This document shows positions 5,172-34,738 of a DNA stretch of 64,000 nucleotides, piece after piece. Made by a program: the position numbers and the translations under genes. Location: NCBI GenBank assembly GCA_041660485.1, contig JBAZWF010000001.1, forward strand, positions 346,224 through 410,223. Reading direction: 5' to 3'. Within the stretch, counting starts at the first letter, position 1. Each line of letters starts with the position of its first letter. This stretch comes from Candidatus Pacearchaeota archaeon (GTDB taxonomy: Archaea; Nanobdellota; Nanobdellia; Pacearchaeales; GW2011-AR1). Below the pieces are notes generated by a model. It ran no database searches and was not told the origin of the DNA. It worked only from the letters and a program-made list of their open reading frames with translations.

Positions 5172-6269
5172 ATGACAGATGCAAAATCACTTGACTTTCA
5201 AGAATTTGTAGAAAAAATTGCTAGCTTTAGAGGCCGGCATACCGAGCTAGTGACAGTGCTGATACCTGCAGAGTATAATGTTAATTCAGTTGTTCATCAA
5301 CTAGAAGGTGAAAAATCAACAGCTTCAAATATTAAATCACGAACAACACGAAATAATGTAATTGAAGCACTTGAAAAAATAGTTCGTGAATTAAAATTAG
5401 GCCCTCAAAAATATGAAAAAGGAATTGCAATTTACTGCGGAAATATTTCTCAAGTTGAAGGACAAACAGACATTCAATTTTTTTCAATAGAGCCACCACA
5501 ACCATTAAAAGTTAGAATGTATCGTTGTGATCAGGAATTTGTTTATCAACCATTAAAAGAAATGACTGAAATAAGTGAAGTTTATGGATTATTAGTAATT
5601 GAAAGAAAAGAAGCAACAATTGGTTTATTAGAAGGTACACAAATTAAAGTTCTTCATAAAATGACTTCAGGAGTTCCTGGAAAAATTAGGGCTGGAGGGC
5701 AATCATCTCAGAGATTTCACCGTGTAACAGAAGGACTTGCAAAAGAATTTTTTAGACGAGTTGCCGAAGCAATGAAAGAATATTTTTTTGATATGCCAAA
5801 ACTAAAAGGAATTTTAATTGGTGGTCCAATACCAACTAAAGAAGAATTTATTGAAGAAGGACAATTAGTCACAGCACTTAAAAGTAAAATAATTGGTGTT
5901 AAAGATATTGGCTATGCAGATGAACACGGACTTCAATTATTAGTAGAAGCAAGTAAAGATGTTCTTGCTGAACAAGAAATAACTAAAGAGAAAAAAATTC
6001 TTGAAAATTTCTTTAATACTCTTGGAAAATTCCCTGAGAAAACTGCTTATGGTTATGAAAAAGTAAAAAAAGCACTTGAAATGGGTGTTGTGCAAACATT
6101 AATACTATCTGAAAAAATTCCAAAAGAGAAAATAAAAGAATTAATAAAAATTGCAGATCAAATGAGTACTGAAATTGAAATTGTCTCTATTGAAACTGGT
6201 GAAGGAGAGCAATTTTTTAATCTTTCAGGGATTGGGGCAATCTTAAGATATGCAGCTAATTTAAATTAA
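5172..6269 (+). CDS. prf1: peptide chain release factor aRF1
   Basis: Contains the NIKS motif (TASNIKS), the YxCxxxF motif (YRCDQEF) and the GGQ motif (AGGQSSQRF). Confidence 0.9.
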   Translation: MTDAKSLDFQEFVEKIASFRGRHTELVTVLIPAEYNVNSVVHQLEGEKSTASNIKSRTTRNNVIEALEKIVRELKLGPQKYEKGIAIYCGNISQVEGQTDIQFFSIEPPQPLKVRMYRCDQEFVYQPLKEMTEISEVYGLLVIERKEATIGLLEGTQIKVLHKMTSGVPGKIRAGGQSSQRFHRVTEGLAKEFFRRVAEAMKEYFFDMPKLKGILIGGPIPTKEEFIEEGQLVTALKSKIIGVKDIGYADEHGLQLLVEASKDVLAEQEITKEKKILENFFNTLGKFPEKTAYGYEKVKKALEMGVVQTLILSEKIPKEKIKELIKIADQMSTEIEIVSIETGEGEQFFNLSGIGAILRYAANLN

Positions 6270-6678: not shown

Positions 6679-6996
6679 ATGAATAACGAAAATAACCAAC
6701 AGCCAGAACAGAAAATAAGAGTTAAACTTCCAAGAAATCGGGAAGTTATAGGTCTTATTGACCAAAGGGTTGGTGGAAGTAGAATGCTTGTTAAATGTAG
6801 TGATGGCAAGGTTAGAAACTGCAAGGTTCCTGGTAGACTTAGAAGATCTTTATGGATAAGAGAAGGAGATTATGTTATTGTTGAACCTTGGGAATTTGAT
6901 GATGAAAAAGGAGATATTTTATTTAAATATAATCCAAATGAGATTAGAATTTTAAGAGAAAGAAATCTTTTAAACGGAATTGACTCTGAATTTTAA
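6679..6996 (+). CDS. eif1a: translation initiation factor aIF-1A
   Basis: S1-like OB domain with the characteristic strings VRVKLPR..EVIG, GGSRMLVKCSDGKVR.CKVPGRLRR..WIREGD.V.V.PW. Confidence 0.85.
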   Translation: MNNENNQQPEQKIRVKLPRNREVIGLIDQRVGGSRMLVKCSDGKVRNCKVPGRLRRSLWIREGDYVIVEPWEFDDEKGDILFKYNPNEIRILRERNLLNGIDSEF

Positions 6997-6997
6997 T

Positions 6998-7474
6998 ATG
7001 AAAACACTTTTTATAAAATCTGCAAGAAAAATAATGCAGAACCAAAAAGAACTTGAAACAAAGTTAAAAGTTAAATTAAATGTTAAAGGACAAAATATTT
7101 CTATTTCAGGAAATGAAGTAAATGAATTTTTTGCTGAACGTGTTTTAATAGCTTTAGATTATCCATTTTTAGTTGAAGATGCACTTTTATTATCAGATGA
7201 AGATTATATGTTTGAGGCAATTAATATAAAAAGTCGTACCCATAGAAAAGATTTAAGTGTTATTAAGGGAAGAATAATTGGAAAAGAAGGAAAAACACTA
7301 AAAGTTTTAGAAGAGCTAACAGGAGCAATTATTGCTGTAAAAGACAATAATGTTGCAATAATTGCAAGAAGTGATAATTTTGAAAAAGCTGTGCAAGGAG
7401 TTATTTCTTTAATACAAGGAAGCAAACAAGGAAATGTTTATGCTTATCTTGAAAAAGCTAATAAAAGAATTTAA
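6998..7474 (+). CDS. KH-domain RNA-binding protein (Dim2/Pno1-like)
   Basis: KH GXXG-type core IGKEGKTLKVLEELTG. ATG at 6998 directly follows the aIF-1A stop, so the track start at 6980 is probably over-extended. Confidence 0.6.
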   Translation: MKTLFIKSARKIMQNQKELETKLKVKLNVKGQNISISGNEVNEFFAERVLIALDYPFLVEDALLLSDEDYMFEAINIKSRTHRKDLSVIKGRIIGKEGKTLKVLEELTGAIIAVKDNNVAIIARSDNFEKAVQGVISLIQGSKQGNVYAYLEKANKRI

Positions 7475-7926
7475 GCAGGAACCGGGTCAAAAACAGTATT
7501 TTCTTCTAAGCTTTTAATAAATTTATTATAAATTATATCCATCTGTTCTTTATCTCTTTTATATTCATCGGAATAAAATGAAAAGATAATTTTTTGAGTT
7601 AGTTCAGAATATAAGTGTTTTGAAAGTATAAAACATTCATTTTGTAATCTTTTTACTTTTTCATATTTCTTTTCCCATCTCTCTAATGCCTTCATGCCTT
7701 TTGAACCAAACATTCTATTTTCTGCCCATCTGCGAACTTGTTCTTCATCTTCTTTTGCATCATCTATTATTTCTTTTGCTTTGTTTAAAGTTGTTTCAAT
7801 TGCCTTATAATCATTAATTATTGTTTCAATACCAGAATAATTATGCTCTTTTTTCATAATATAATCTAAAAATTCTATATGATTCATAAATTCATGGAAA
7901 TGGTCTAAATCTACATGTTCTTCCAT
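7471..7926 (-). CDS. hypothetical protein
   Basis: 151-aa ORF with helical, charged composition and no recognised motif. Confidence 0.4.
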   Translation of the reverse strand: MEEHVDLDHFHEFMNHIEFLDYIMKKEHNYSGIETIINDYKAIETTLNKAKEIIDDAKEDEEQVRRWAENRMFGSKGMKALERWEKKYEKVKRLQNECFILSKHLYSELTQKIIFSFYSDEYKRDKEQMDIIYNKFIKSLEENTVFDPVPA

Positions 7927-8048
7927 TTCATTTCATATTCCTTCTATTTTTAAGGTTTTATGTTTTTGCAGATAGTTAGTTTTATAAATACAATCAACTC
8001 CCTTTTATTGAATGCCTCGGTAGCTCAGTTGGTAGAGCACACGGCTGT

Positions 8049-8547
8049 AAGACAATAGGTTTAAAGTGAAAGATCCAAGAACTTACAAAGACAGAAGAAA
8101 ATATAACATTGAAGCTGTTTCAAGACGGAGAAAAGAAATTCGTCTTAAAGCAATTTTGCACCTTGGTGGAAAATGCATGAAATGTGGATATTCAAAATAT
8201 CCTGAAGTGTTAGAATTTCATCATAGAAATCCATTGCAAAAAGATTTCAATATATCAAGAAAAGGACATTGTAGGAGTTGGAGTAGAGTAAAAACAGAAA
8301 TTGAAAAATGCGATTTGCTTTGTGCAAATTGTCACAGAGAAACTCACGTTGAACTTAATAAGTTAGCAGCTTCTGAAAGAAATTTCAGAATGAACAGCGA
8401 GTAAATTCAGGGAAACCCTACATTAAAGATGAGGACAATCCTGAGCCAAGCCAGAAATGGAAGGTGCAGAGACTAGACACTCGCCACCTAAAGCCAAAAG
8501 CCAAGGTGATGGTATAGTCCTACCCTCTAAGTAATTGGAGAAGGTTG
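8049..8547 (+). mobile_element. group I intron (IC3-like) in the anticodon loop, between positions 35 and 36
   Basis: P1: exon GCUGU 8044-8048 pairs with the internal guide sequence (IGS) GCAGC 8366-8370, with a U8048-G8366 wobble. P10: GUUA 8362-8365 pairs with exon 2 UAAC 8548-8551. P2: 8371-8390, 8 bp with a GAAA loop. P3: 8397-8402 with 8479-8484. J3/4 is AAA. P4: 8406-8412 with 8439-8445. P6: CCA-GAAA-UGG 8451-8460. P7: 8469-8475 with 8515-8520, with one bulged A. P8: 8485-8489 with 8504-8508. The intron ends in G8547. Confidence 0.85.
8066..8404 (+). CDS. intron-encoded HNH homing endonuclease
   Basis: HNH signature CMKCG...EFHHRNP...N...CANCHRETH. GTG start at 8066, with an in-frame stop at 8048-8050 just upstream. 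The ORF lies entirely inside the intron. Confidence 0.75.
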   Translation: MKDPRTYKDRRKYNIEAVSRRRKEIRLKAILHLGGKCMKCGYSKYPEVLEFHHRNPLQKDFNISRKGHCRSWSRVKTEIEKCDLLCANCHRETHVELNKLAASERNFRMNSE

Positions 8548-8573
8548 TAACCGTGGGGTCAGAGGTCCGAGTC

Positions 8574-8587
8574 CTCTCCGAGGCGTT
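8574..8587 (+). repeat. direct repeat copy 1 (the genuine 3' terminus of tRNA-Asn)
   Basis: CTCTCCGAGGCGTT. This is the reference copy for the repeats at 9089 and 9889. Confidence 0.8.
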
Positions 8588-8662
8588 GCAATTTTAATTT
8601 AGAAAAGAGGGACTTAAAGAGAATATAATAATTCTTATAAAGTCAGAAATTTAAAATTAATT

Positions 8663-9037
8663 ATGGAACAAGAATTACAGATTGAAGGGTATAGATATAG
8701 TGGTAGATTTAAAATTGAAGAACATTCACATACTTACACTGATTGGATTGATTCAGAAGTGGGAAGATATCCTCAAACTACAACTAATCGTTGGTGGGAA
8801 GGTCAAGGGATTATAACTGATAAACAAACTGGTAATTTTCAGAAATTCTTAATTTCTTTAGATCATAATCAAACATTAGGAGAAAACAAGGAGCAAATAC
8901 AAATCGGTATAGATTATGCTAAAATTATTGATTCATCATTAGGTTCTATGTATGAATTAGCAGAAAAATCTGAAGATATTATTCCTAGAATTAAACCTGC
9001 TACTGAATCTTTAGTAGGATTATTAAAAGAAGAATAA
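8663..9037 (+). CDS. hypothetical protein (cassette 1)
   Basis: 124-aa ORF lying between tRNA-terminus copies 1 and 2. It is bracketed by the 10-bp inverted repeat GGGACTTAAA (8609-8618) / TTTAAGTCCC (9052-9061). Confidence 0.45.
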   Translation: MEQELQIEGYRYSGRFKIEEHSHTYTDWIDSEVGRYPQTTTNRWWEGQGIITDKQTGNFQKFLISLDHNQTLGENKEQIQIGIDYAKIIDSSLGSMYELAEKSEDIIPRIKPATESLVGLLKEE

Positions 9038-9088
9038 GTAATTAAATTTAATTTAAGTCCCCCTAAAACTGAAGTTTTACTGTTTCGT

Positions 9089-9109
9089 CTCTTCGAGGCG
9101 TTCTTTTTC
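9089..9109 (+). repeat. direct repeat copy 2 of the tRNA-Asn 3' terminus
   Basis: CTCTTCGAGGCGTT matches the tRNA end in 13 of 14 positions. The 16 nt CGAGGCGTTCTTTTTC are identical to copy 3. Confidence 0.75.
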
Positions 9110-9146
9110 ATATAAATATTTAAAAACTTTATAAAAATGTAATAAA

Positions 9147-9857
9147 ATGGCTAAAGTATTAGCAAAAACAAAAGTAGAAGATAGAATCAGACAAGATGAG
9201 AAAAGAGATAGACAAAGAATAATTGATGGATTATTTTATGAACCTTTTAATGATGCAATAACTCAATTCACAGGAATTTTTGGTTATTCTAAAGGAGAAG
9301 GTTATGATGCTATCGAAGGATTGCTTGAAGATTATTATGGGCGTTCAAGAATTGAGGGATTATTATCTGAGCAAAAGAGTCTTAGTTTTAATAAAACTTA
9401 TAGAGGAAGGCCTTCAATAGAGTATAAATTTTCATTTGATAAAGAAAGTGGTTTATATATCGGAGCGTGGAAAGGAAAAGATGCTTTTAATGGTCATTCG
9501 GTTTGTAAATTAGATAATGGTCTTATTCAACAAGATGTAGATTTTATATTAAATTATTTTAAATCTTTTGATGCAATGACTAATGAAGATCGAGCAAAAG
9601 CAATAATAGGTTATATGGTTGGAGAAGGACAATTAAATGTTTCACGAGATTCAAATGGAGAATTAATGTTTAGTCTTAGTGAAGAAGGAAAAAGATTATC
9701 AGAAGAAGCAAATAAAAAAATGACTCCTGAAGAAAAAACTGAAATGAATAAGTTTGTTGATAAAGCTATTAATCAAACCATGATAGAAATTGAACCAGTA
9801 TTTGATAAAGATGGTAAAGAAATTGATGGTTGGTCAAGCAACGATATCCCTTTTTAA
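9147..9857 (+). CDS. hypothetical protein (cassette 2)
   Basis: 236-aa ORF between repeat copies 2 and 3. No motif recognised. Confidence 0.45.
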   Translation: MAKVLAKTKVEDRIRQDEKRDRQRIIDGLFYEPFNDAITQFTGIFGYSKGEGYDAIEGLLEDYYGRSRIEGLLSEQKSLSFNKTYRGRPSIEYKFSFDKESGLYIGAWKGKDAFNGHSVCKLDNGLIQQDVDFILNYFKSFDAMTNEDRAKAIIGYMVGEGQLNVSRDSNGELMFSLSEEGKRLSEEANKKMTPEEKTEMNKFVDKAINQTMIEIEPVFDKDGKEIDGWSSNDIPF

Positions 9858-9888
9858 TCTGCTAAGTGTTACAGCATTAAACTATCTA

Positions 9889-9908
9889 CCTCCGAGGCGT
9901 TCTTTTTC
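9889..9908 (+). repeat. direct repeat copy 3 of the tRNA-Asn 3' terminus
   Basis: CTCCGAGGCGTT is an exact 12-nt match to 8576-8587. The extension CTTTTTC is shared with copy 2. Confidence 0.75.
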
Positions 9909-9951
9909 TAATTATCTAAATCTTTAAAAATTAAAACAAATAACATAAAAC

Positions 9952-10248
9952 ATGAGTGCAGAAGAAATAATCAAAGATAACATGGCTAAAATGTCTAAAG
10001 CAGAACATAATAATTTGGTTAAGAAAATAGCTACAGGCGGATTTAAGATTCCACAACTAGAAAAAGAAGAGGGCATAATAACCGGACATGTTTATATTAA
10101 AGAAACAAAACCCGATAACAATGCATATGATTGTAGAATATTTCCAGTTGCTTATATAAGTAATGAGCGCATTTATTTGGTTAACAAAGACCAACCGGCT
10201 TTAGAACAATATCATGACAAATTAAAAAAGATTGTTTTTGGGAAATAA
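9952..10248 (+). CDS. hypothetical protein
   Basis: 98-aa ORF with no recognised motif. Confidence 0.4.
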   Translation: MSAEEIIKDNMAKMSKAEHNNLVKKIATGGFKIPQLEKEEGIITGHVYIKETKPDNNAYDCRIFPVAYISNERIYLVNKDQPALEQYHDKLKKIVFGK

Positions 10249-10261
10249 TTCTTTTACCTTG

Positions 10262-10447
10262 TTATTTCTCCAACTTTTCTTCTTTTTTGATTTTTTCTTT
10301 CTCGAATTTTTCTATTTCTTTATCATAATACCTTACAAGTTCATCATCACCTAATTCTTCAGCATGTTTTCTTTTTTCCTCATGAATTCTTTTTTGTTCT
10401 TCTAAGGACTTAATACCTTTTTCAAGTCTTTTTTCTCTATTTACCAT
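10262..10447 (-). CDS. small K/E-rich coiled-coil protein
   Basis: 61-aa ORF overlapping the end of the upstream nucleotidyltransferase gene by 11 nt. Confidence 0.35.
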   Translation of the reverse strand: MVNREKRLEKGIKSLEEQKRIHEEKRKHAEELGDDELVRYYDKEIEKFEKEKIKKEEKLEK

Positions 10448-11219
10448 GTTCCAATATCTTCACATCATTATCTAACAATTTTAATAAAACATATAAATCA
10501 TTTGTCTTAATCTTTTGTTTTGTTTTTATTTCATCTTTTGCATTTTTATATGCTTCATAGATAGCATCAAAATCAATTTTTGATGCTTTTTTGATTATCC
10601 ATTCCTTAAATTTTTTATAAGAGTACTTTTCCCCTTTTAACAGCATATGAATAATAAATATCCCTCTTAATCTTAACATAATTGAATAAGGAACTGCCTG
10701 ACCTAAGAAATATTGTTCTTTAGTTTCATGACTTAGAAATTCTTGATTTACTTCTATTAGTCTTTTACACGAAGCAAAATATTCTTTAAAATCATTTACT
10801 TTTGGCTTATATTTTTCTTTAAGCTCATATAAAAGCTTTGAATTAATAATTACTTGAGCTTCTGAAAATATTGAATACATTAATAAAGGTTCTAATTTAA
10901 TTGCTTTTTCAATATTTTTCTCTTCAATGCAGTTTATTTCAAATCCTTTTGATTGAATTTTTATTTTTTTATTTGATACAATAAAAAGGTCAATATCTGA
11001 ATCTTCTCTTTGTTCAGCTCTTGCATATGAACCATAAAGATATACTCCGCTAATACTTTCAAGGTAAGGTTCTATAATCTCAATTATCTTTTCTTTAATA
11101 CTCTTCCTTGGCTGTTTTATAACAATAATCTGCTCTCCTGCCCATTCTTTAGGAACAAATATATGTGCCCCATTTCCAAATGCCTTTACCACTTTTACTA
11201 ATTGTTGTTCTTTTTCCAT
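10437..11219 (-). CDS. nucleotidyltransferase-domain protein with an AbrB/DUF2080-like N-terminus and a possible HEPN-like C-terminus
   Basis: Minimal nucleotidyltransferase (NTase) motif LYGSYARAEQREDSDIDLFIV. The N-terminus VKAFGNGAHIFVPKEWAG resembles DUF2080. The C-terminal RGIFIIH fits the Rx4-6H pattern. Confidence 0.55.
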   Translation of the reverse strand: MEKEQQLVKVVKAFGNGAHIFVPKEWAGEQIIVIKQPRKSIKEKIIEIIEPYLESISGVYLYGSYARAEQREDSDIDLFIVSNKKIKIQSKGFEINCIEEKNIEKAIKLEPLLMYSIFSEAQVIINSKLLYELKEKYKPKVNDFKEYFASCKRLIEVNQEFLSHETKEQYFLGQAVPYSIMLRLRGIFIIHMLLKGEKYSYKKFKEWIIKKASKIDFDAIYEAYKNAKDEIKTKQKIKTNDLYVLLKLLDNDVKILEHGK

Positions 11220-11348
11220 GTATATACTTAGTATATACCTTTTATAAAGTTTTTGATTAGATTTTCTTATTAGCGTTTATATTTTAAAGCATATTTCCAA
11301 CTGCCATTTAATTTAAAAACCCTAATTAGTTTTTATAAAAATAAAAAG

Positions 11349-12791
11349 ATGAGTGGTATTTTCGGAGTTGTTTCAGATGAGAACTGCATAGATGATCTTT
11401 TTTATGGTACTGATTATCATTCTCATTTAGGGAAAAAAATTGGCGGAATAGTTATTCAAAATGATAAAAAGTTTCATCGTGAAATAAAAGATATTTCTCT
11501 TTATCCTTTCAGACCTCAGCTTTCAGATTTTAAAAAAGATGTGCACGGAACAAAAGGTTTAGGGGTTGTTGGAGATTATGAGCCGCAACCATTAATTATT
11601 GGTTCTCAATTAGGAGATTATGCAATTGCTCATGTTGGAAAAGTAAATAATTTAGATGAAATTTTAAAAAAATCATATAGCAAAGGAATTCATTTTAATG
11701 AAATGAGTTTAGGTGGTGTTAATCCGGTTGAACTTATTAGTTCTTTAATAAACCAAGGCAAAAATTATGTTGATGGAATTGAAATTATGCAAAATACTGT
11801 TAATGGTTCTTCTTCTGTTATGCTTTTAACTCAAGAAGGCATTTATGTTGCAAGAGATAAATTTGGAAGAACACCAATTAATATAGGAAAAGGAAATAAT
11901 AAAACTGCTGCAAGTTTTGAATCATTTCCATTTGAAAATCTGGGATTTGAATTTAATAATCAATTAGGCCCAGGAGAAATTGGAATTATAACAAAAGAAG
12001 GTTATCAACAGCTAAAAAAACCAGAAGATTTATTGCAGATTTGCAGTTTCTTATATGTTTATTATGGAAATCCGGCAGCAATTTATGAAGGTGTTGAAGC
12101 AGAATTAACAAGAAACCATCTTGGAGCAAAGCTTGCAATATCAGATAGAAAAGATAATCTACAAGCTGATTTTGTTTCAGGAATTCCAGATTCTGGAATT
12201 GGAAGTGCAATAGGTTATGCAAATGAAAGTAGATTACCATACAAACGTCCGTTTATTAAATATACCGAAACCTGGCAAAGAAGTTTTATGCCCCAAAATC
12301 AAAATGAAAGAGAATTTGTTGCAAAAATGAAATTAATTCCAAGAAGAGGAATTATAAAAGGAGCAAGAATTGTTTTTACAGATGATAGTTTAGTAAGAGG
12401 AAGCCAGTCAAAAGATAAAATTGAAGTTGTTTTTTCTTGTAGTGCTCAAGATATTAATTTTAGATTATCATGCCCTCCTTTAATGAATTCCTGTAAATTT
12501 TTAAATTTTTCAATATCTGAATCTATTTATGACTTAGCTGCAAGAAGAACAATAAGAGATATTGAAGGAAAAGAAAATGTTGATATTTCTAAATATATTA
12601 ATGAAACATCAGATAAATATTCACAAATGGTTGAAGGAATAAGAAGAAAAGTTGGAGTTACTAATTTGAAATATCAAAGATTAAATGATTTAGTTTCTGC
12701 AATTGGTTTACCAAAAGAAAAATTATGCACTTATTGTTGGGATGGTTGTGATCCAACACATTGTAAAAGAAATATTATTCATTCTGTATAG
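11349..12791 (+). CDS. amidophosphoribosyltransferase (PurF)-like protein lacking the N-terminal Cys nucleophile
   Basis: Starts MSGIFGV, where PurF and other Ntn amidotransferases have MCGI. PRPP-binding-like motif IVFTDDSLVRGSQ. Cys-rich C-terminus CTYCWDGCDPTHC. Confidence 0.55.
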   Translation: MSGIFGVVSDENCIDDLFYGTDYHSHLGKKIGGIVIQNDKKFHREIKDISLYPFRPQLSDFKKDVHGTKGLGVVGDYEPQPLIIGSQLGDYAIAHVGKVNNLDEILKKSYSKGIHFNEMSLGGVNPVELISSLINQGKNYVDGIEIMQNTVNGSSSVMLLTQEGIYVARDKFGRTPINIGKGNNKTAASFESFPFENLGFEFNNQLGPGEIGIITKEGYQQLKKPEDLLQICSFLYVYYGNPAAIYEGVEAELTRNHLGAKLAISDRKDNLQADFVSGIPDSGIGSAIGYANESRLPYKRPFIKYTETWQRSFMPQNQNEREFVAKMKLIPRRGIIKGARIVFTDDSLVRGSQSKDKIEVVFSCSAQDINFRLSCPPLMNSCKFLNFSISESIYDLAARRTIRDIEGKENVDISKYINETSDKYSQMVEGIRRKVGVTNLKYQRLNDLVSAIGLPKEKLCTYCWDGCDPTHCKRNIIHSV

Positions 12792-12825
12792 AAATTCTTT
12801 TAAACTAATTAAACTTAAAATTACA

Positions 12826-13104
12826 ATGGAAAGCATAAAAGATAGCTATTTAGTTTCTGGATTGAGAAATATTGCAATTGCTACTGCAGTTGTTGCATCC
12901 GGATATATGGTAAGTGGATGTGCAACTAGTGGAAATTACGGACTTGAAGGTGGATTACTTGGTGCAGGTGCTGGTGCAATTATTGGAAATCAAAGTGGAG
13001 ATGCAGGAACAGGAGCCATTATAGGCGGACTTGGTGGAGCTTTGATTGGTTCACAAGTAGAAAAAAGAGATAGAGAAGAAAGACACGAACATCATCGAAG
13101 ATAA
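12826..13104 (+). CDS. glycine-zipper lipoprotein
   Basis: Signal peptide with a lipobox-like VSGC. Gly-zipper GGLLGAGAGAIIG...GAIIGGLGGALIG. ATG at 12826 is preferred over the track start at 12703, which overlaps the PurF-like gene. Confidence 0.55.
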   Translation: MESIKDSYLVSGLRNIAIATAVVASGYMVSGCATSGNYGLEGGLLGAGAGAIIGNQSGDAGTGAIIGGLGGALIGSQVEKRDREERHEHHRR

Positions 13105-13191
13105 ATAGTTAGTTTTGCAAAATTGAATTGTTTAGAGAGAGTGAAATTTATTTATCGTTATATTTAAATAGATTATTTTTCTTTATTTAAT

Positions 13192-13758
13192 ATGGATTTT
13201 GATAAAGTAATATCAGAAAGAAAAAGTGTTAGAAAATTTCATTCTAAAAAACCAAATTGGAGAGATATTATTGAAGCAGTTGATGCAGGAGTAAGAGCTC
13301 CGTTAGCCGGTGCAATTTCAAGTGTAAGATTTATTCTTGTGGATAATCCTGAAATAATTAGCAAACTTGCTACAGCAGCACAACAAGATTTTGTTGGTGA
13401 AGCTCATTATGTAGTTGTTGTTTGCTCTGATCCCACTGATGTCATAAGAAGCTATGATGAAAGAGGAGAAATTTATGTTAGACAACAAGCAGGAGCTGCA
13501 ATTGAAAATTTTATTCTTAAACTTACTGATCTTGGACTTGCAACTTGTTGGGTTGGAGATTTTGTTGATGAGCAAGTTAAATCAGCCTTAAGAATTCCAG
13601 CAAGTGTTTTTGTTGAAGCAATGTTTCCTATAGGATATTCTTTAGATAAAAGTGTGAAAAAAAGAGCTCCAAATCTCGATAAAACTTTATATTTTAATAG
13701 ATATAAATTAAGATTCTTAAAACCAAGAAAAGAAATTGATTCTTTTAGTGAGCATTAA
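13192..13758 (+). CDS. nitroreductase family protein
   Basis: N-terminal SERKSVRKF plus the overall nitroreductase pattern (ATCWVG). Confidence 0.6.
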   Translation: MDFDKVISERKSVRKFHSKKPNWRDIIEAVDAGVRAPLAGAISSVRFILVDNPEIISKLATAAQQDFVGEAHYVVVVCSDPTDVIRSYDERGEIYVRQQAGAAIENFILKLTDLGLATCWVGDFVDEQVKSALRIPASVFVEAMFPIGYSLDKSVKKRAPNLDKTLYFNRYKLRFLKPRKEIDSFSEH

Positions 13759-14171
13759 ATTTTCGCCCTGACAGAATGTTTTGCACCACATGCTAAACAA
13801 CGAATAAACATAAAATCTCCTTGTTTCATTAATTCTGTATCTGGTTTTTTACATTCTCTGCATACAACAAATTCATTAACATAAAGATTAAACTTTTCAT
13901 TAATTTGATTTGATTGGATTTTTCTGTTCATAACAAGTCTTTCGTTTTCCATTCTTGAGAAACTTGCAAGCTCTTTTGAAAGGAATTTTGCAACATGTTC
14001 AGGGTCTCTTCTAAGATAAGAACATATCTGAAGAAAATTTGATATTACTGTTTTATTTCCAATAACTTGAGAATTAACTTTAGGGATTTCAAATCTTTCA
14101 AAGCGTTCGCTGACAGAAACCGGTTTTATTTTTCCATAAGCTTCTTCAAGCATTTGTTCATAGTTTTCCAT
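13755..14171 (-). CDS. eif2b: translation initiation factor aIF-2 beta subunit
   Basis: YEQMLEEAY start, NF..I...L.R.PEHV.KFL.KELA pattern, and C-terminal zinc ribbon CRECKKPDT...CLACGA. Confidence 0.85.
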   Translation of the reverse strand: MENYEQMLEEAYGKIKPVSVSERFERFEIPKVNSQVIGNKTVISNFLQICSYLRRDPEHVAKFLSKELASFSRMENERLVMNRKIQSNQINEKFNLYVNEFVVCRECKKPDTELMKQGDFMFIRCLACGAKHSVRAKI

Positions 14172-14231
14172 AAATTACCTATTATATTACCATTTAAAAA
14201 GGTTTATAAGATAATATTTATTACATAATAT

Positions 14232-16370
14232 ATGAATGATTCGGAAAAAAGTAAATTTTCTTTTGTTGGAGTTGTTGTTACTTTTGGAGCAATTTTAATT
14301 GGGTTAGGTTTTGCATGGCTTATTGCAATGAATTGGGAATGGATGCCCGACTTTGTTAAAATATTAATTCTGGTTTTTTGTACTCTTGCTTCTTATGTTT
14401 CTGGATTTTTTTTAAGAGAAAAATTTCTTAAATCTGGAGAAAGTTTGATATTTCTTGGAGGACTTTTATATACCTTAAGTGTTTTTTTAATTGCGCAAAT
14501 ATTTAATATTGGTAAAACTCCAACTCAAATTACTTCTTTAACTTTAGTTATTTTTATTGGACTTATTTTAGCCGCTATTTTTTTAATTTCTAGAGGAAAT
14601 TATATTTTAGCAGCTATCTCATTTATTCTATTAGGTTCCCAAATATTTTCTTCTTGGTGTTCGCTTCCAAAATTTATCACTATTCCATTCTTAATATTTT
14701 TAGTCATAGGGATTTACTTTGTTGGAGTTATTCGAAAGTATAAACCGGAATTTGGTGGAGAGACATTTGTTTTTATGAGTAATTTATTTTTAATTTCTGT
14801 TTTTATCTTGTTTTTTTCATCATTTCTTGCTTTATTAATTCCTTCTTGTAATATTTATAATAATTACGGCAATTCATATTTAGGGTTATTTGGTTTGAGT
14901 ATGTTTTCATCAATTTTCTCTATGATTCCAATCTTACTTGTAATTTATTTTATATTTAGGAAGAAATTAAAAAACCAAAAAGGAGATTTGTTTTTCTTTA
15001 TTGGAGCATTATTTTTATCAATTAGCCTATTTTTAATTTGTAAAACCTTAGGATTAGAAATGAATTTACAGAATATAAGTTGGATATTCTTAATCTCACT
15101 TATTATTTTCTTTATAACTGCTTATGTATTTTCTTCAAAAAGCACTTTATTTCTTGCAATGACTTATTCGTTTATTTGGGTTTCAACTCAATTTTTAGCA
15201 TTTTATAATTTAATTAATTCTTCAAATCTTTCATTAGGAATATTATTGTTTTATTATTTATCTTTAGCTATCTTATTTTATTCATTTTCTTTAATTCATA
15301 AAAATTCTGAAAATGGATTTGGAAATGTGTATAAAATTTGGACTGCATTTTATATTTTATTATTTGGATATGCTTTAAGTTTCCTTGATTTTTCATTATT
15401 TATATGGGCTAAAGGAGTTGAAAGTTCAATTGGAGCATATATCTTACTTGCATTATTAATTATTGTTTCTCTGTCTGCTTTTATTTTCAGCTTATTCAAA
15501 TTAGATGGAAATAAAAATTTGAAAAAAGAAGTTTTAGGGTTTATTTTGATTATTTTACTTTTAGTAATTATTGTTTCTTCTGCAGGACTTGCAAATTATA
15601 GTTCAGGAAATTCTGATAAGGGGTATTGTTCTTTACAATCTTGTTCAATTTATAAAAATATTAATGAGTGCAGTTCTGCACCTGAAAAACTTAATTGTTT
15701 TTGGTATAATAATGTTTATTCTAATGGTTATATTAATGATAAAGGTATATGTAGTTCAGCTGCTTGTTATTATGGAAAAAATGAAACTGACTGTCTTAAA
15801 CTTTCTAAGTTTGGGTGTTCTTGGAATGAATCTTCTACCTATAACCGATGTAATACACCACCATGTTATGATTATAGAAATAAAGAGGAATGCAATTCAA
15901 TTAATGGGTGTGGATGGAATAATAATACCCTCTTATGTCGTTCTAATTTAGATAATTCTTTCGATGATTCATATCATGAATGCTCAAAATATAATAATAA
16001 TTATGAAGGTTGTAAACAAGCTTCTTATTGCAAATGGACATCTGATACATTTTCTTTTTATTTCCATAAATCAAATGAAGCTCCAATAAGTTTATTATTA
16101 TATTGGATATTTGCAAATATTATATTTATAATAATTATACTTGCAATTATCGGTTTTGGAAATTTAGAATCTTCAAAAGGAATTATTAATATGGGTATTC
16201 TTTTCTTTTCTTTGGAAATAATATCTAGGTATATTGGATTTATAATGGACTATTGGGGAACAAATTATAATTCTATTGCAATACTTTCTATTGTTGGAGG
16301 AGTTTTATTAATTGGAGGAGGGTTAGGTATTGAGATGTGGAGAAGAAAGTTAATAAAAAACATAAAATAA
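14232..16370 (+). CDS. polytopic membrane protein (DUF2157-like) with an inserted Cys-rich repeat ectodomain
   Basis: Many transmembrane (TM) helices. The region 15627-16040 encodes four repeats of the form C-x2-Y-x-N-x2-[DE]C-x4-6-C-x-W. Confidence 0.55.
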   Translation: MNDSEKSKFSFVGVVVTFGAILIGLGFAWLIAMNWEWMPDFVKILILVFCTLASYVSGFFLREKFLKSGESLIFLGGLLYTLSVFLIAQIFNIGKTPTQITSLTLVIFIGLILAAIFLISRGNYILAAISFILLGSQIFSSWCSLPKFITIPFLIFLVIGIYFVGVIRKYKPEFGGETFVFMSNLFLISVFILFFSSFLALLIPSCNIYNNYGNSYLGLFGLSMFSSIFSMIPILLVIYFIFRKKLKNQKGDLFFFIGALFLSISLFLICKTLGLEMNLQNISWIFLISLIIFFITAYVFSSKSTLFLAMTYSFIWVSTQFLAFYNLINSSNLSLGILLFYYLSLAILFYSFSLIHKNSENGFGNVYKIWTAFYILLFGYALSFLDFSLFIWAKGVESSIGAYILLALLIIVSLSAFIFSLFKLDGNKNLKKEVLGFILIILLLVIIVSSAGLANYSSGNSDKGYCSLQSCSIYKNINECSSAPEKLNCFWYNNVYSNGYINDKGICSSAACYYGKNETDCLKLSKFGCSWNESSTYNRCNTPPCYDYRNKEECNSINGCGWNNNTLLCRSNLDNSFDDSYHECSKYNNNYEGCKQASYCKWTSDTFSFYFHKSNEAPISLLLYWIFANIIFIIIILAIIGFGNLESSKGIINMGILFFSLEIISRYIGFIMDYWGTNYNSIAILSIVGGVLLIGGGLGIEMWRRKLIKNIK

Positions 16371-16885
16371 TGAAAAAACAAGTAAGATTAATTATATTTT
16401 TAGCATTATTAATTATAGGAATATCCTTATTTATCTTTTATTTATCCTGGCCTTTAATGACTGGAAAAATAGTTGTTTTATCAACTCATCCATTAGACCC
16501 TTTTGATGTTTTTAGGGGGCAATATATTTCAATTAATTATGATATTAGTACTATTCCTCAATCTCCTGAAATAACTGATTGTATTGAAAGTAATTGTATT
16601 ATTTCCCAAAAGATAATATATGTTGCTTTAAAAGAAAATACCTCTTCTGGGACATATGATTATTATTCCTCTTCTTTTTCAATACCTTCTTCTGGAGTAT
16701 TTATCAAAGGCAGGATAAAAGATTCAAATTATGATTCAGTTAATGTGGAATATGGTATTGAACAGTATTTCTTTGAAAGAAATAAAGAAATTACTTTAAA
16801 TGGTTTGCAAGTAGAGGTTAAAATTGATAATTCTGGACAGGCAAGAATTACTAGGCTTTTAAAAGAGGGGAAACTAGTTATTTAA
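16370..16885 (+). CDS. GDYXXLXY-domain membrane protein
   Basis: DPFDVFRGQYISINYDIS matches the GDYXXLXY signature. ATG at 16370 overlaps the upstream stop (TAATG). Confidence 0.6.
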   Translation: MKKQVRLIIFLALLIIGISLFIFYLSWPLMTGKIVVLSTHPLDPFDVFRGQYISINYDISTIPQSPEITDCIESNCIISQKIIYVALKENTSSGTYDYYSSSFSIPSSGVFIKGRIKDSNYDSVNVEYGIEQYFFERNKEITLNGLQVEVKIDNSGQARITRLLKEGKLVI

Positions 16886-16935
16886 CTAATATTTTTAGTA
16901 ATAAGGTTTATAAAAACAATTTATTTAAGTAATAT

Positions 16936-17499
16936 ATGAAAATAAAGAACCTAGTTATTGGACTTGCAATTATGATTTTAGCGAGTTTTGTTGCAATATA
17001 TGGAATAAAAACATTTTATGCAGAAGAACCGCAATATGATACTTATTGTGGGAATGTAACTTACCCAGGTTATGAAATTAATACTTCTGAACAATGTATG
17101 GCTTTTGGAGGAAAGTGGAATTCAAATGAAGGAATTTATGGTAAATATCCTTCAACACCTTCAGGATATTGTGATTTAACTTATAATTGTCAAAAACAAT
17201 TTGAAGAAGCTCAAAAAAGTTATTCAAAAAATTTATTTATTATAACTGTTCCAGTAGGTGTTGTATTAATTGCAATTGGAGGAGCTTTATTTGCTCTTGA
17301 AGCAGTGGGTGTTGGAATTATGCTTGGAGGAATTGTTACATTAATTTATGGAGCAAGTTCATACTGGCCAAGTGCAAATAATGCATTTAAATTTGGAATT
17401 TCTCTTGCAGGTTTAATAATTATTATTATTCTTGCTTATTGGCTTAATCAAAGGGAATTTTTTACTAATTTATTTAAGAAAGAAAAGAAAGCTAAATAA
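16936..17499 (+). CDS. membrane protein with a Cys-containing ectodomain
   Basis: N-terminal TM helix, an ectodomain with six Cys, then 2-3 C-terminal TM helices. Confidence 0.4.
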   Translation: MKIKNLVIGLAIMILASFVAIYGIKTFYAEEPQYDTYCGNVTYPGYEINTSEQCMAFGGKWNSNEGIYGKYPSTPSGYCDLTYNCQKQFEEAQKSYSKNLFIITVPVGVVLIAIGGALFALEAVGVGIMLGGIVTLIYGASSYWPSANNAFKFGISLAGLIIIIILAYWLNQREFFTNLFKKEKKAK

Positions 17500-17536
17500 T
17501 CGCACATTTTAAAAACTCCTTCTTCTTTTTCAAATT

Positions 17537-18292
17537 ATGTTAGATATTTGGTTTTATTCAATATTTAGTGTATTAATTATAAGTCTTGTTTCACTTATTG
17601 GAATTATTACTTTGCCAATTAATGCAAAAAGATTTGAACAAATTATTGTTTATATGATTTCTTTTTCTGCTGGAGCATTATTAGGAGATGCATTTATTCA
17701 TTTATTACCCGAAGCTATTAAAGAAAATGGATTTACAGTTCAAATATCTTTATTTTTAATTTCAGGAATTATTTTTTCATTTATTATAGAAAAAATTCTA
17801 CACTGGCGCCATTGTCATCATCCAACAACTAAAGAACATCCACATAATTTATCTACAATGAATTTATTTGGAGAAGGGGTCCATAATTTTATTGATGGTA
17901 TAATTATTGGAGCAAGTTATATTGTTTCAATTCCTGTGGGCATTGCTGCAACAACTGCTATTTTATTCCATGAAATTCCCCAAGAAATAGGAGATTATAG
18001 TGTTCTTGTTTATGGAGGATTTTCAAGAAGAAAAGCATTACTTATGAATTTTTTAATTTCTCTTACTGCAGTTTTAGGAGTAATAATCTCTTTAATTATG
18101 GGAATTTATACTGATAATTTCTTATTATTTTTAATTCCCTTTGCAGCAGGAAATTTTATTTATATTGCCTGTTCCGATTTAATCCCTGAAATCCATAAGA
18201 ACAGTGATAAAATTTCAAAATCTTTAATGCAATTGATTCTATTTATTTTAGGAATTGCAATAATGTACTTTTTTAGAATTTTTGGTAGTTAA
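17537..18292 (+). CDS. ZIP family metal transporter
   Basis: HEIPQEIGD signature, an H-rich loop (HWRHCHHPTTKEHPH), and multiple TM helices. Confidence 0.75.
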   Translation: MLDIWFYSIFSVLIISLVSLIGIITLPINAKRFEQIIVYMISFSAGALLGDAFIHLLPEAIKENGFTVQISLFLISGIIFSFIIEKILHWRHCHHPTTKEHPHNLSTMNLFGEGVHNFIDGIIIGASYIVSIPVGIAATTAILFHEIPQEIGDYSVLVYGGFSRRKALLMNFLISLTAVLGVIISLIMGIYTDNFLLFLIPFAAGNFIYIACSDLIPEIHKNSDKISKSLMQLILFILGIAIMYFFRIFGS

Positions 18293-18894
18293 ACTCCCAA
18301 GTATCTCATTAAACCCGGGCGAGGTTCATAAATAATGCCCTGTTCTAAAGCTTTTTTAATTTCTTGATTTATAAGTTCTGGTGAAGCTTTTAATTCCATA
18401 ATAAGTTTTTCAGAAGTAATTCCTTCTGGCTCTGCACTTTTAATTTTATCTATTAATTGGTCTGCAAGAACTAGAATTTGTTCTTTATTAACTGTTTTAG
18501 GAGCTTCTTTTTCAAATTCTAGTTTTCTAACTAATAAATATCTTGGATCTTGAATTCTAATTATTTCTGGAGTTATATATAACTCATCATTATAGCTTCT
18601 TAAAAGCCCAATAAGCATTACTGTATCTCCTTGACTAAGATTTGCAAATTTATTTACATCTTCACCAAATATTTTAATCCTAATTTGTCCTGAAGCATCA
18701 TCAATTGTTAAACTGATATATTGTTTTTCTTCTGAAGAATATTTATCTACTACATTTGCAACAATATTTACTCGAGAAATTTTTCTATCGCCTAATTCCA
18801 AGAAAGAAAATCTTTCATTATCCATAATAGGTTTTCCTTTTAGAATATCACCAATTCTAATTTTGTATGCTGTTTGTCTTTTAAAATCTGCCAT
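18289..18894 (-). CDS. OB-fold ssDNA-binding protein (RPA32-like) with a C-terminal winged helix
   Basis: OB-fold-like core VNIVANVV...ISLTIDDASGQIRIKIFG. Lies next to MCM. Assignment rests on pattern only. Confidence 0.45.
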   Translation of the reverse strand: MADFKRQTAYKIRIGDILKGKPIMDNERFSFLELGDRKISRVNIVANVVDKYSSEEKQYISLTIDDASGQIRIKIFGEDVNKFANLSQGDTVMLIGLLRSYNDELYITPEIIRIQDPRYLLVRKLEFEKEAPKTVNKEQILVLADQLIDKIKSAEPEGITSEKLIMELKASPELINQEIKKALEQGIIYEPRPGLMRYLGV

Positions 18895-19161
18895 TTTCCT
18901 CTTTTATTAATATATAAGTAACAATAAATAACCTATTTAAAAGTTTATTTTGTCTATTGCTATGATTAAATTTTATCTTTCTCTAGTGTTAAGTAAATAT
19001 ACTCTATCTTTACCAAACTTTTAGTAAGTTATAGTTAATTCTACTAGTTATTATAGATTATAATTGCATATTAACTTTTGACATTGATTTATTAATATTT
19101 TTATGTTTCCAAATAAAGTAAAAGTAATCTTTTTAATAAGTTATCTAATTATTACTCAACT

Positions 19162-34452: not shown

Positions 34453-34471
34453 TTTAAAATTAATCTTTTAT

Positions 34472-34580
34472 GGGTCTAAGAGGATTTGAACACTTCAAAA
34501 CAAAGTTTTGAACGTCGCCAAGAATTTTATTCTTGTGCGCTTACAATTTATTTAAATTGTAAGGTGAAAATCCTCTACCC
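34472..34580. ncRNA. 109-nt four-way-junction (cloverleaf-topology) element built on a copy of the tRNA-Arg 3' end
   Basis: The closing stem pairs 34472-34487 with 34568-34580 (13 bp with a 3-nt bulge). It encloses three perfect hairpins at 34494-34512 (8 bp), 34519-34535 (7 bp) and 34540-34563 (10 bp). All pairs are Watson-Crick. Confidence 0.55.
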
Positions 34581-34587
34581 TTTTTAA

Positions 34588-34661
34588 TGGGTCTAAGAGG
34601 ATTTGAACCCCTATCGCCCGGTCCGAAGCCGAGAGCTCTATCCAGGTTAAGCTATAGACCC
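34588..34661 (-). tRNA. tRNA-Arg(UCG)
   Basis: Acceptor stem GGGUCUA/UAGACCC, anticodon loop CUUCGGA, T arm AGGGG-UUCAAAU-CCUCU, discriminator A. Confidence 0.85.
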
Positions 34662-34738
34662 ACAATAATTCTAATAATCTTGCCTTTAATATCTTTGCTT
34701 TACATAAGATTAATAAATCTAATTTATCTCATAAGTTC

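Follow-up and report, generated by a model that had tools for sequence, protein, structure and literature searches.

Partial tRNA genes that persist as attR scars of integrated elements have been documented in Archaea (PMC9897764), and one account of the sites used by tRNA-targeting integrases lists three sublocations, including the asymmetric 3′ end (10.1101/2020.11.02.365908, citing Williams 2002). The described elements of this type, such as PYG1 of Pyrococcus yayanosii, are 9-23 kb or larger, are bounded by repeats of about 40-50 bp and encode an integrase. Here we analyze a 64-kb stretch of DNA (hereafter, the window) from a metagenome-assembled genome of Candidatus Pacearchaeota (contig of 856,651 bp), in which three short copies of the 3′ end of a tRNA-Asn gene, denoted R1, R2 and R3, delimit two intervals, the first with the gene ORF1 (WC781_02285) and the second with ORF2 (WC781_02290). 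The explanation favored here, to which we give about an even chance, treats R2 and R3 as the scars of two distinct site-specific insertions at a tRNA-Asn 3′-end hot spot, with the inserts reduced to single accessory genes and the recombinase missing nearby.

Three copies of the tRNA-Asn 3′ end

The tRNA-Asn gene on which the repeats are based consists of two exons (8014-8048 and 8548-8585, both on the + strand) separated by a group I intron. The unspliced gene is called neither by ARAGORN nor by the Rfam tRNA model because the 499-nt intron splits it; the joined exons are recognized by ARAGORN as a canonical 73-nt tRNA-Asn(GTT), which confirms the identity of the tRNA end proposed from the sequence alone.

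R1 (8574-8587, +; CTCTCCGAGGCGTT) lies at the end of exon 2 and is the end of the live gene, covering tRNA positions 62-73 and two flanking T residues (TT). R2 (9089-9109, +) comprises a tRNA end and a T-run terminator (CTCTTCGAGGCGTTCTTTTTC); its first 14 nucleotides (CTCTTCGAGGCGTT, 9089-9102) match R1 at 13 of 14 positions, with one mismatch. R3 (9888-9908, +) is a further tRNA-end copy with the same T-run, identical to R1 over 12 of 12 positions at 9890-9901 (CTCCGAGGCGTT) and differing from it at two positions over ACCTCCGAGGCGTT (9888-9901). R2 and R3 are closer to each other: the string CGAGGCGTTCTTTTTC is present in both with 16 of 16 identities (9094-9109 and 9893-9908), and their common block extends to 19 nt with a single mismatch (18/19 identical). 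The core of the repeat within the tRNA end is CTCYCGAGGCGTT. All three copies are on the + strand and are spaced within 1.3 kb. In shuffles of the window that preserve dinucleotide frequencies, 0.03 copies of the 14-mer with up to 2 mismatches are expected, compared with the 3 observed; the G+C content of the window is 28.8%. Thus, the three copies described in the sequence-only reading were recovered with every match given there, and the two reported open reading frames (8663-9037 and 9147-9857) proved to be the only sizeable ones in the two intervals. That reading had also raised the prospect of further copies of the motif elsewhere in the genome. Searches of this genome for motif copies and for recombinases cover the 64-kb window, part of the 857-kb genome, and within it no copy beyond R1-R3 was detected; the GC-rich core CCGAGGCG has no copy elsewhere in the window, R2 being a one-mismatch copy of it.

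For comparison, contigs with related loci (designated L003, L005 and so on) were retrieved via ORF2 homologues and via the intron/exon junction of the tRNA-Asn gene; a scan of genome contigs with this junction returned mostly random bacterial matches, L015 and L024 being the useful ones. A second assembly from the same population, Logan contig L001, is identical to the window over 8391-19420 (0 mismatches), so that the arrangement is not an artifact of a single assembler.

The ORF1-containing insertion

The segment between R1 and R2 (insertion 1; 8588-9088, +; 501 bp) encodes ORF1 (8663-9037, +; 124 aa), which is preceded by its own promoter-like box. The insertion is absent from three related loci, L005, L007 and L015, in which the tRNA end is directly followed by the T-run, the promoter ATATAAATATTTAAAA and ORF2. 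In L005, the empty site reads ...CCTCTCCGAGGCG TTTTTTCTTTT...CATATAAATATTTAAAAGC...ATG(ORF2), and in the window this T-run, promoter and start of ORF2 come after R2: CTCTTCGAGGCG TTCTTTTTC ATATAAATATTTAAAAAC... The right flank of R2 (9110-9150) is orthologous to the tRNA-to-ORF2 spacer of these three relatives, whereas the right flank of R1 is unrelated to their tRNA flank. Insertion 1 is therefore lineage-specific and bounded exactly by R1 and R2, in full agreement with the earlier proposal that the first interval was inserted at the repeats. Because the T-run, promoter and ORF2 start of the relatives follow R2 and not R1, R2 with its flank is the original tRNA end, terminator and ORF2 promoter. 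Positions 8588-9088 and the present last dozen bases of the tRNA gene thus arrived together with ORF1, in the classical attL/attR geometry. The tRNA gene remained intact at R1 after the insertion, as judged by the folding of the spliced exons.

Insertion 1 contains subterminal inverted repeats (8606-8629 and 9041-9064; 24 nt, 79% identical) located 18-24 nt inside its ends, and the ends themselves (GCAATTTTAA... and ...CTGTTTCGT) lack complementarity. No close relatives of ORF1 were detected; its 17 distant homologues, similar to it in size, are 33-44% identical. One of these is found in an ordinary chromosomal context, between genes for ribosomal proteins and PPDK, and the others are on short contigs. 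Profile searches with ORF1, as well as with ORF3 (see below), against Pfam, PHROGs, NCBIfam and PADLOC revealed no family. The base composition of ORF1 and ORF2 is not distinct.

The gene between R2 and R3

ORF2 (9147-9857, +; 236 aa) belongs to a family with 16 relatives that are 51-69% identical, are found in Pacearchaeota only and carry no annotation. In the syntenic loci, the identity of ORF2 to its orthologs (61-69%) is in the range of the housekeeping neighbors, namely eIF1A (65-69%), the KH-domain protein (61-65%) and nitroreductase (61-65%), and L005 is the closest relative for most of these four proteins. ORF2 adjoins tRNA-Asn in at least seven related loci without a flanking tRNA-end repeat, and no tRNA-end copy follows ORF2 in any of the relatives compared. 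Given this synteny, the divergence matching that of the housekeeping neighbors and the lack of flanking repeats elsewhere, ORF2 is best read as a resident gene of the tRNA-Asn locus, probably not a mobile cassette there. The earlier suggestion that the second interval is a cassette is thus not supported, the occurrence of the same ORF without flanking repeats in related genomes being one of the outcomes that the sequence-only reading had named as refuting it, and serial integration at the tRNA gene, proposed for both intervals, is retained for ORF1 and not for ORF2. In terms of variation between genomes, ORF1 and ORF3 are variable or orphan, and ORF2 is conserved and syntenic.

The AlphaFold2 model of ORF2 (pLDDT 81) consists of an eight-stranded barrel, a helical, winged-helix-like part and a disordered acidic tail; the best matches in the Protein Data Bank are weak and involve calycin/nitrobindin-like barrels. 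The conserved C-terminal acidic tail of the family, ...(D/E)DDIPF, is similar to the C-terminal tip with which bacterial SSB binds its partners. ORF2 could be assigned to no family in Pfam, PHROGs or NCBIfam, and PADLOC gave a weak match (LmuC-like, E 5e-4). The possibility that ORF2 is itself a recombinase was considered and rejected given the barrel and helices of the model, the weak calycin/nitrobindin matches and the lack of a family. Thus, the profile searches advocated for the two interval proteins assigned a family to neither, and homologues were found for both.

R3 and the second accessory block

R3 marks the start of a second accessory block, which consists of ORF3, a 61-aa ORF and a nucleotidyltransferase gene. 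ORF3 (9952-10248, +; 98 aa) is an orphan, its sole match among 5.8 billion proteins being itself, and has a G+C content at third codon positions (GC3) of 0.23, compared with 0.09-0.12 in the housekeeping genes; the GC3 of ORF3, of the HNH endonuclease gene in the intron and of the nucleotidyltransferase gene is slightly elevated. The 61-aa ORF and the 260-aa nucleotidyltransferase occupy 10262-11219 on the - strand (Pfam PF18765 and PF01909; NCBIfam NF033496). The nucleotidyltransferase proper (10437-11219, -) contains an N-terminal DUF2080 domain annotated as ‘transposase-associated’ (NF033496, 40.5 bits with a cut-off of 22) and a C-terminal domain of the MNT type, with matches to MntA and HalB that fall below the respective cut-offs. 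The gene had been described from the sequence alone as NTase/HEPN-like: the nucleotidyltransferase part of this description is supported by PF18765 and PF01909, whereas no HEPN domain or HEPN partner was detected. The 61-aa ORF, which lies upstream of the nucleotidyltransferase gene and overlaps it, encodes a charged peptide of coiled-coil-like character. The orphan status of ORF3, the distant homologues of ORF1 and the ‘transposase-associated’ N-terminus together lend the cargo the flavor of mobile elements.

R3 matches R2 even across the lineage-specific flank TTCTTTTTC, and for this reason looks young. A right-hand partner of R3, be it a fourth copy near the nitroreductase gene or a decayed copy at the right end of the ORF3 block, was sought, and none was significant. 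Three further similarities were set aside. The best local match of the L005 spacer after ORF2, at 11277-11297, is below the shuffle threshold; a decayed R3 after ORF2 in L005 (GAAGCATTTTTCTTTT versus GAGGCGTTTTTTCTTTT) is indistinguishable from chance in T-rich DNA; and the promoter similarity of the R3 flank to other leaders was discounted as a sign of homology, given that these genomes share the strong consensus TATAAATNNTTAAAAA.

An insertion hot spot in related archaea

The loci of Pacearchaeota and Woesearchaeota share the backbone eIF1A - KH - tRNA-Asn - (ORF2) - nitroreductase, and everything else between tRNA-Asn and nitroreductase varies among the related loci. On the left, the KH-domain gene (6980-7474, +; 61-65% identity) is located directly 5′ of tRNA-Asn in L003, L005, L007, L015 and L024. 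On the right, the nitroreductase gene (13192-13758, +) directly adjoins tRNA-Asn in the woesearchaeal locus L024, and in the pacearchaeal locus L015/L026 the order is tRNA - ORF2 - nitroreductase, with nothing more. The spacer between tRNA-Asn and ORF2 is empty in three genomes (L005, L007 and L015) and elsewhere contains ORF1 (the window), a three-gene block on the other strand that includes a PIN gene (L003), three small ORFs (L028), a 91-aa ORF (L036) or a 176-aa ORF (L033/L032); in L035 it is likewise filled with small genes. Similarly, the spacer between ORF2 and nitroreductase contains no ORF, an ORF of 89, 94, 158 or 202 aa, or about 3 kb of DNA. In the window, this second spacer also harbors a PurF-like gene and a Gly-zipper gene (11349-13104, +), which are absent between ORF2 and nitroreductase in L003, L005, L007 and L015. 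These comparisons support the view, already put forward from the sequence alone, that insertions recur in the 3′ flank of tRNA-Asn, which makes it a hot spot, the contents of the spacers differing among related loci. The extent of the accessory region, previously placed at about 11220 on its right side, is redefined by synteny as 8586-13191, up to the start of the nitroreductase gene.

Upstream of the tRNA gene, too, the window departs from its relatives. In the related loci, the tRNA promoter directly follows the stop codon of the KH gene, and the 151-aa ORF found between the two in the window (7471-7926, -) is absent in all of them. This ORF has no family match in Pfam, NCBIfam or other profile searches. 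Judging from this comparison, the 5′ side of tRNA-Asn also took up an insertion in the window lineage.

Parallel cases

A comparable, independent arrangement is found at the same tRNA gene in L033/L032, where the single 176-aa ORF is located between the tRNA end (…CCTCCCCGAGGCG CTTTTTATTTTT) and a 15-nt remnant (GTCTTCCTAGGGCG CTTTTTATTTTT), with the orthologous ORF2 promoter next to the remnant on its right. The acceptor allele of this remnant is CTAGGGCG, as it is in the live tRNA genes of the sister genomes L007 and L036, which identifies it as the displaced end of the resident gene. The left borders of the remnants, given as tRNA positions, are similar: about 59-62 for R2, about 61-64 for R3 and about 59-61 for L033. 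Such a common border (about 59-64) argues for a defined recombination point at the border of the T-loop and T-stem. The live tRNA-Asn of L033 (L033 4426-5263; the same sequence is present in L032 1-125) lacks the group I intron and has a D-loop insert of approximately 36 nt. An ORF of approximately 250 aa with a PD-(D/E)xK-like motif (FFPDF...EVTAWEG) enters the 5′ part of this tRNA gene and ends inside the D-loop insert; it may represent a second kind of selfish element at the same tRNA gene.

The second case is a tRNA-Arg(TCG) gene in the window (34587-34662, -). A perfect 21-nt copy of the segment from the T-loop to the 3′ end (TTCAAATCCTCTTAGACCCAT) is present 117 nt downstream. The 96 nt between the copies together with the second copy (region 34470-34607, -) can be folded into a structure with a 13-bp closing stem and three hairpins (RNA minimum free energy -41.1 kcal/mol, z -7.4). 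This downstream element is single-copy in the window, has no match in Rfam and is absent from the viral contigs scanned. It may derive from an integration event, or else be a miniature element or a structured RNA of unknown type.

The third case comes from the pacearchaeal contig L010 (7909-10708), where a short run of genes is interspersed with a recurring site whose inverted arms are 14 nt long (TAATAAGGTCTTCA / TGAAGACCTTATTA), and of which five exact copies are present in 2.8 kb compared with 0.4 expected. The genes are a 94-aa ORF accompanied by a Glycos_transf_3 gene, an AAA-kinase-like gene and a homologue of ORF2, here at a different locus. The last two genes have a full site between them and half sites on their outer sides, an arrangement that resembles attL - attP - attR and that two tandem single-gene circles of 592 and 749 bp might produce.

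The group I intron of tRNA-Asn

The intron (8049-8547, +; 499 nt) is inserted in the anticodon loop, between tRNA positions 35 and 36, and is recognized by the Rfam model RF00028 with 81.4 bits (gathering score 50; E 1.4e-20). Its boundaries are those of group I introns, the 5′ exon ending in ...CTGT (U) and the intron in ...GGTTG (G). An ORF inside the intron (8066-8404, +) encodes an HNH endonuclease (PHROG HNH endonuclease, E 2e-28). Group I introns are also present in the tRNA-Asn loci of L003, L005, L007, L015, L024 and L028; the HNH gene accompanies it in some of the genomes, whereas a 253-nt form without an ORF is found in L005 and an ORF-less form is found in L024 too. The Logan contig L001 starts at window position 8391, within the intron and close to where the HNH ORF ends; such a break may be due to a repeat, or to a mixture of strains that have and lack the HNH gene.

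Between species, the intron is 90-97% identical at the nucleotide level and the HNH protein 90-92% identical at the amino acid level, compared with 61-69% for the flanking housekeeping proteins. The intron hence appears to be spreading horizontally between species, and since it and its endonuclease are far more alike than the neighboring proteins, the tRNA-Asn gene is repeatedly targeted by homing, and double-strand breaks come with it. Homing elements also seem active elsewhere in this group: in the related pacearchaeal contig L003, the aRF1 gene (12800-15187) contains an intein with a LAGLIDADG domain that the aRF1 gene of the window (5172-6269) lacks. In a 2018 survey of archaeal group I introns, all 39 were located in rRNA genes (PMC6125680), and a text search of the literature for group I introns in archaeal tRNA genes found no report. 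The presence of such an intron in an archaeal tRNA gene may be more unusual than the repeats, and the structured element downstream of tRNA-Arg is unusual as well.

Origin of the repeats

Under the favored scenario of site-specific integration, a small DNA molecule bearing ORF1 would have undergone recombination with the chromosome within the terminal 12-15 nt of the tRNA gene. The incoming DNA would have brought a new copy of the tRNA-end bases, leaving the tRNA intact (R1), and the old tRNA bases, with the old terminator and the ORF2 promoter, would have been moved 515 bp downstream (R2). R3 would be a second such copy, just after ORF2, at the left border of the block with ORF3, the 61-aa ORF and the DUF2080-nucleotidyltransferase. 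The enzyme responsible would most likely be a tyrosine-type integrase with a crossover at the border of the T-loop and T-stem, at about tRNA positions 59-62, the ‘3′-end’ sublocation of tRNA-targeting elements, either encoded elsewhere and acting in trans or lost, and deletions would have pared the elements to single genes. This scenario is favored by the combination of three clustered copies, the empty site, the intact tRNA, the hot spot, the parallel in L033, the common left border of the remnants, the tRNA-Arg copy, the mobile-element flavor of the cargo and the archaeal precedents. With regard to the position of R3 downstream of ORF2, three options can be envisaged: insertion of a second element into a secondary site, with a crossover at the left edge of a tRNA-like attP; re-acquisition of ORF2 on a mini-element targeting tRNA-Asn; or local duplication.

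Several observations weigh against integration. As the sequence-only reading had stated, there is no recognizable integrase: no recombinase family was identified among the ORFs of 7471-11219 (Pfam, PHROGs, NCBIfam and PADLOC), and a crude motif screen revealed no box-II-like motif in any ORF of the window. The intervals, at 0.5 and 0.8 kb, are an order of magnitude below the known elements in size, and we know of no autonomous integrative element that small. Exact searches of viral contigs with the R2 junction and an R3-type motif yielded no attP-like junction, the sole match being a GC-rich phage coding region, and a search of viral contigs for the tRNA-Arg insert yielded nothing relevant. 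Other insertions into the spacers do not follow the same pattern: those of L028 lack a tRNA-end repeat, that of L036 has a repeat of at most 9 nt, and in L003 a 20-nt repeat of the promoter region is found in place of a tRNA-end repeat. Because ORF2, located between R2 and R3, looks vertically inherited, R3 cannot be the simple attR of an element entering at the tRNA, and its good preservation also speaks against an age as great as that of ORF2 at the locus. Finally, the live tRNA of L033 differs from the remnant on both acceptor strands, so that a single crossover at position ~60 fails to explain this case, in which the whole tRNA gene appears to have been replaced.

The foremost alternative is capture during break repair. 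A double-strand break in or near tRNA-Asn, made by the HNH endonuclease of the intron or by another incoming homing nuclease, would be repaired from foreign DNA carrying its own tRNA-Asn and a neighboring gene; copying would proceed past the tRNA and end in an illegitimate join to the resected old stump, of which the last 12-15 nt would be left as a scar. Such a mechanism requires no integrase and draws on the evident movement of the intron and HNH gene between species. It is also consistent with the lineage-specific insertion on the 5′ side of the tRNA gene in the window (7471-7926) and with the state of L033, where only the last ~15 nt of a sister-type allele persist downstream of a tRNA that looks wholly replaced. 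The main weakness of this alternative is the common left border of the three remnants, which start at about positions 59-64, unlike the products of random resection. Homing nucleases of group I introns normally cut near the intron insertion site, and the HNH cut would accordingly be expected near the anticodon, 25 nt upstream. Moreover, no donor with tRNA-Asn followed by ORF1 is known, the location of R3 downstream of ORF2 is explained no better, and the tRNA-Arg duplication begins exactly at the T-loop, as integrases would give. Break repair is a serious rival for the origin of the scars, albeit an unlikely one.

A platform for gene cassettes is decidedly improbable. Here, the 3′ end of tRNA-Asn would act as an attI-like site at which single-gene circles are inserted serially by a recombinase encoded elsewhere, resulting in the order tRNA / ORF1-R2 / ORF2-R3. 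This model accounts for the single ORF per interval, each with its own promoter-like box and with the T-run inside the repeat, for the 18/19 identity of R2 and R3 and for the hypervariable spacers on either side of ORF2, and it has a counterpart in the single genes of L010 that are separated by a palindromic site in an attL/attP/attR-like arrangement. It conflicts with the behavior of ORF2, which in the relatives is syntenic, has diverged like its neighbors and lacks flanking repeats, and most small-ORF insertions in the relatives are also devoid of such repeats. No attC-like hairpin was detected in the R2 and R3 regions (55-75 nt segments, z -1.9 and +0.2), the core GTTCTTT departs from the integron consensus GTTRRRY, there is no IntI-like gene, the neighbors being the KH gene, the 151-aa orphan ORF and the HNH ORF of the intron, and no further copies are present to the right, up to the nitroreductase gene. 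A cassette array had been suggested from the sequence alone; with no attC-like folding, no integron integrase and an own promoter-like box for each ORF, this suggestion is not supported.

We see only a slim chance for a more general version of this model, a gene-capture system of Pacearchaeota in which a recombinase acting in trans inserts, excises and stacks single-gene circles 0.5-0.8 kb in size, each with a short attachment site of its own, at sites that mimic the 3′ ends of genes (tRNA-Asn here, a palindromic site in L010). If true, it would amount to a tRNA-anchored, integron-like platform with its own type of site and with members of the ORF2 family as cargo that recurs, and the 96-nt structured insert downstream of tRNA-Arg might have arisen in the same way.

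The last explanation, that the likeness to a tRNA end is due to chance or to a functional terminator or RNA-processing motif, deserves next to no credence. R2 and R3 do lie 31-52 nt past a stop codon and contain oligo-T, with which transcription usually terminates in archaea, and R2 can form a 6-bp hairpin (CGTCTC/GAGGCG). However, R3 does not share this hairpin, ORF2 of the relatives ends with no such motif, the sequence flanking R2 is demonstrably that of the old tRNA, and only the 0.03 copies given above are expected. None of the other ~60 gene ends of the window has the motif, so that within the window it is not a general terminator, the alternative that the sequence-only reading had itself named.

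Comparison with known systems

Little is known about mobile elements and gene flow in DPANN archaea, Pacearchaeota among them, and the locus described here provides a base-resolved example of one tRNA gene at which small foreign genes have landed in several species, with the empty site, the filled site and the scars directly comparable. If the insertions were mediated by an integrase, the scars define its attachment site (about tRNA positions 59-73), which can be used to hunt for integrating elements. If no integrase exists, the locus would exemplify gene gain driven by break repair around a tRNA gene with a homing intron. In either case, the scars can date and delimit orphan genes in very small genomes.

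Among the known systems, group I intron homing with co-conversion shares with this locus a mobile HNH intron in a tRNA gene with rearranged flanks, including the L033 tRNA that appears to have been replaced. To our knowledge, homing does not leave duplicated exon ends, whereas the window contains duplicated tRNA ends, and no donor is known.

Casposons and other transposons insert at tRNA 3′ ends with target duplications of 14-15 bp, and the 14-bp direct repeat at the tRNA 3′ end of the window is similar in this respect. Unlike casposons, the insert of the window is 0.5 kb long and has no terminal inverted repeats, only subterminal ones, and neither Cas1 nor PolB was detected in it (Pfam and PHROG).

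Integron gene-cassette arrays have also been reported in Archaea. The locus resembles them in its single-ORF units, the recurring short site and the fixed attachment point; it differs in the lack of IntI, attC hairpins and the GTTRRRY core, in the promoter-like boxes of the individual ORFs and in the constancy of ORF2.

The closest correspondence is with the tRNA-targeting integrative elements exemplified by PYG1. Common to both are a partial 3′ copy downstream of an intact tRNA gene, an insert that is present or absent exactly at the repeat, accessory or orphan cargo and more than one scar per tRNA gene. The differences are the intervals of 0.5 and 0.8 kb, the repeats of 12-21 nt, the missing integrase and the resident gene in one of the intervals. 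Rather than a proven mobile cassette array, the tRNA-Asn locus represents a well-known phenomenon on a miniature scale and without an integrase, in a lineage that has been little studied.

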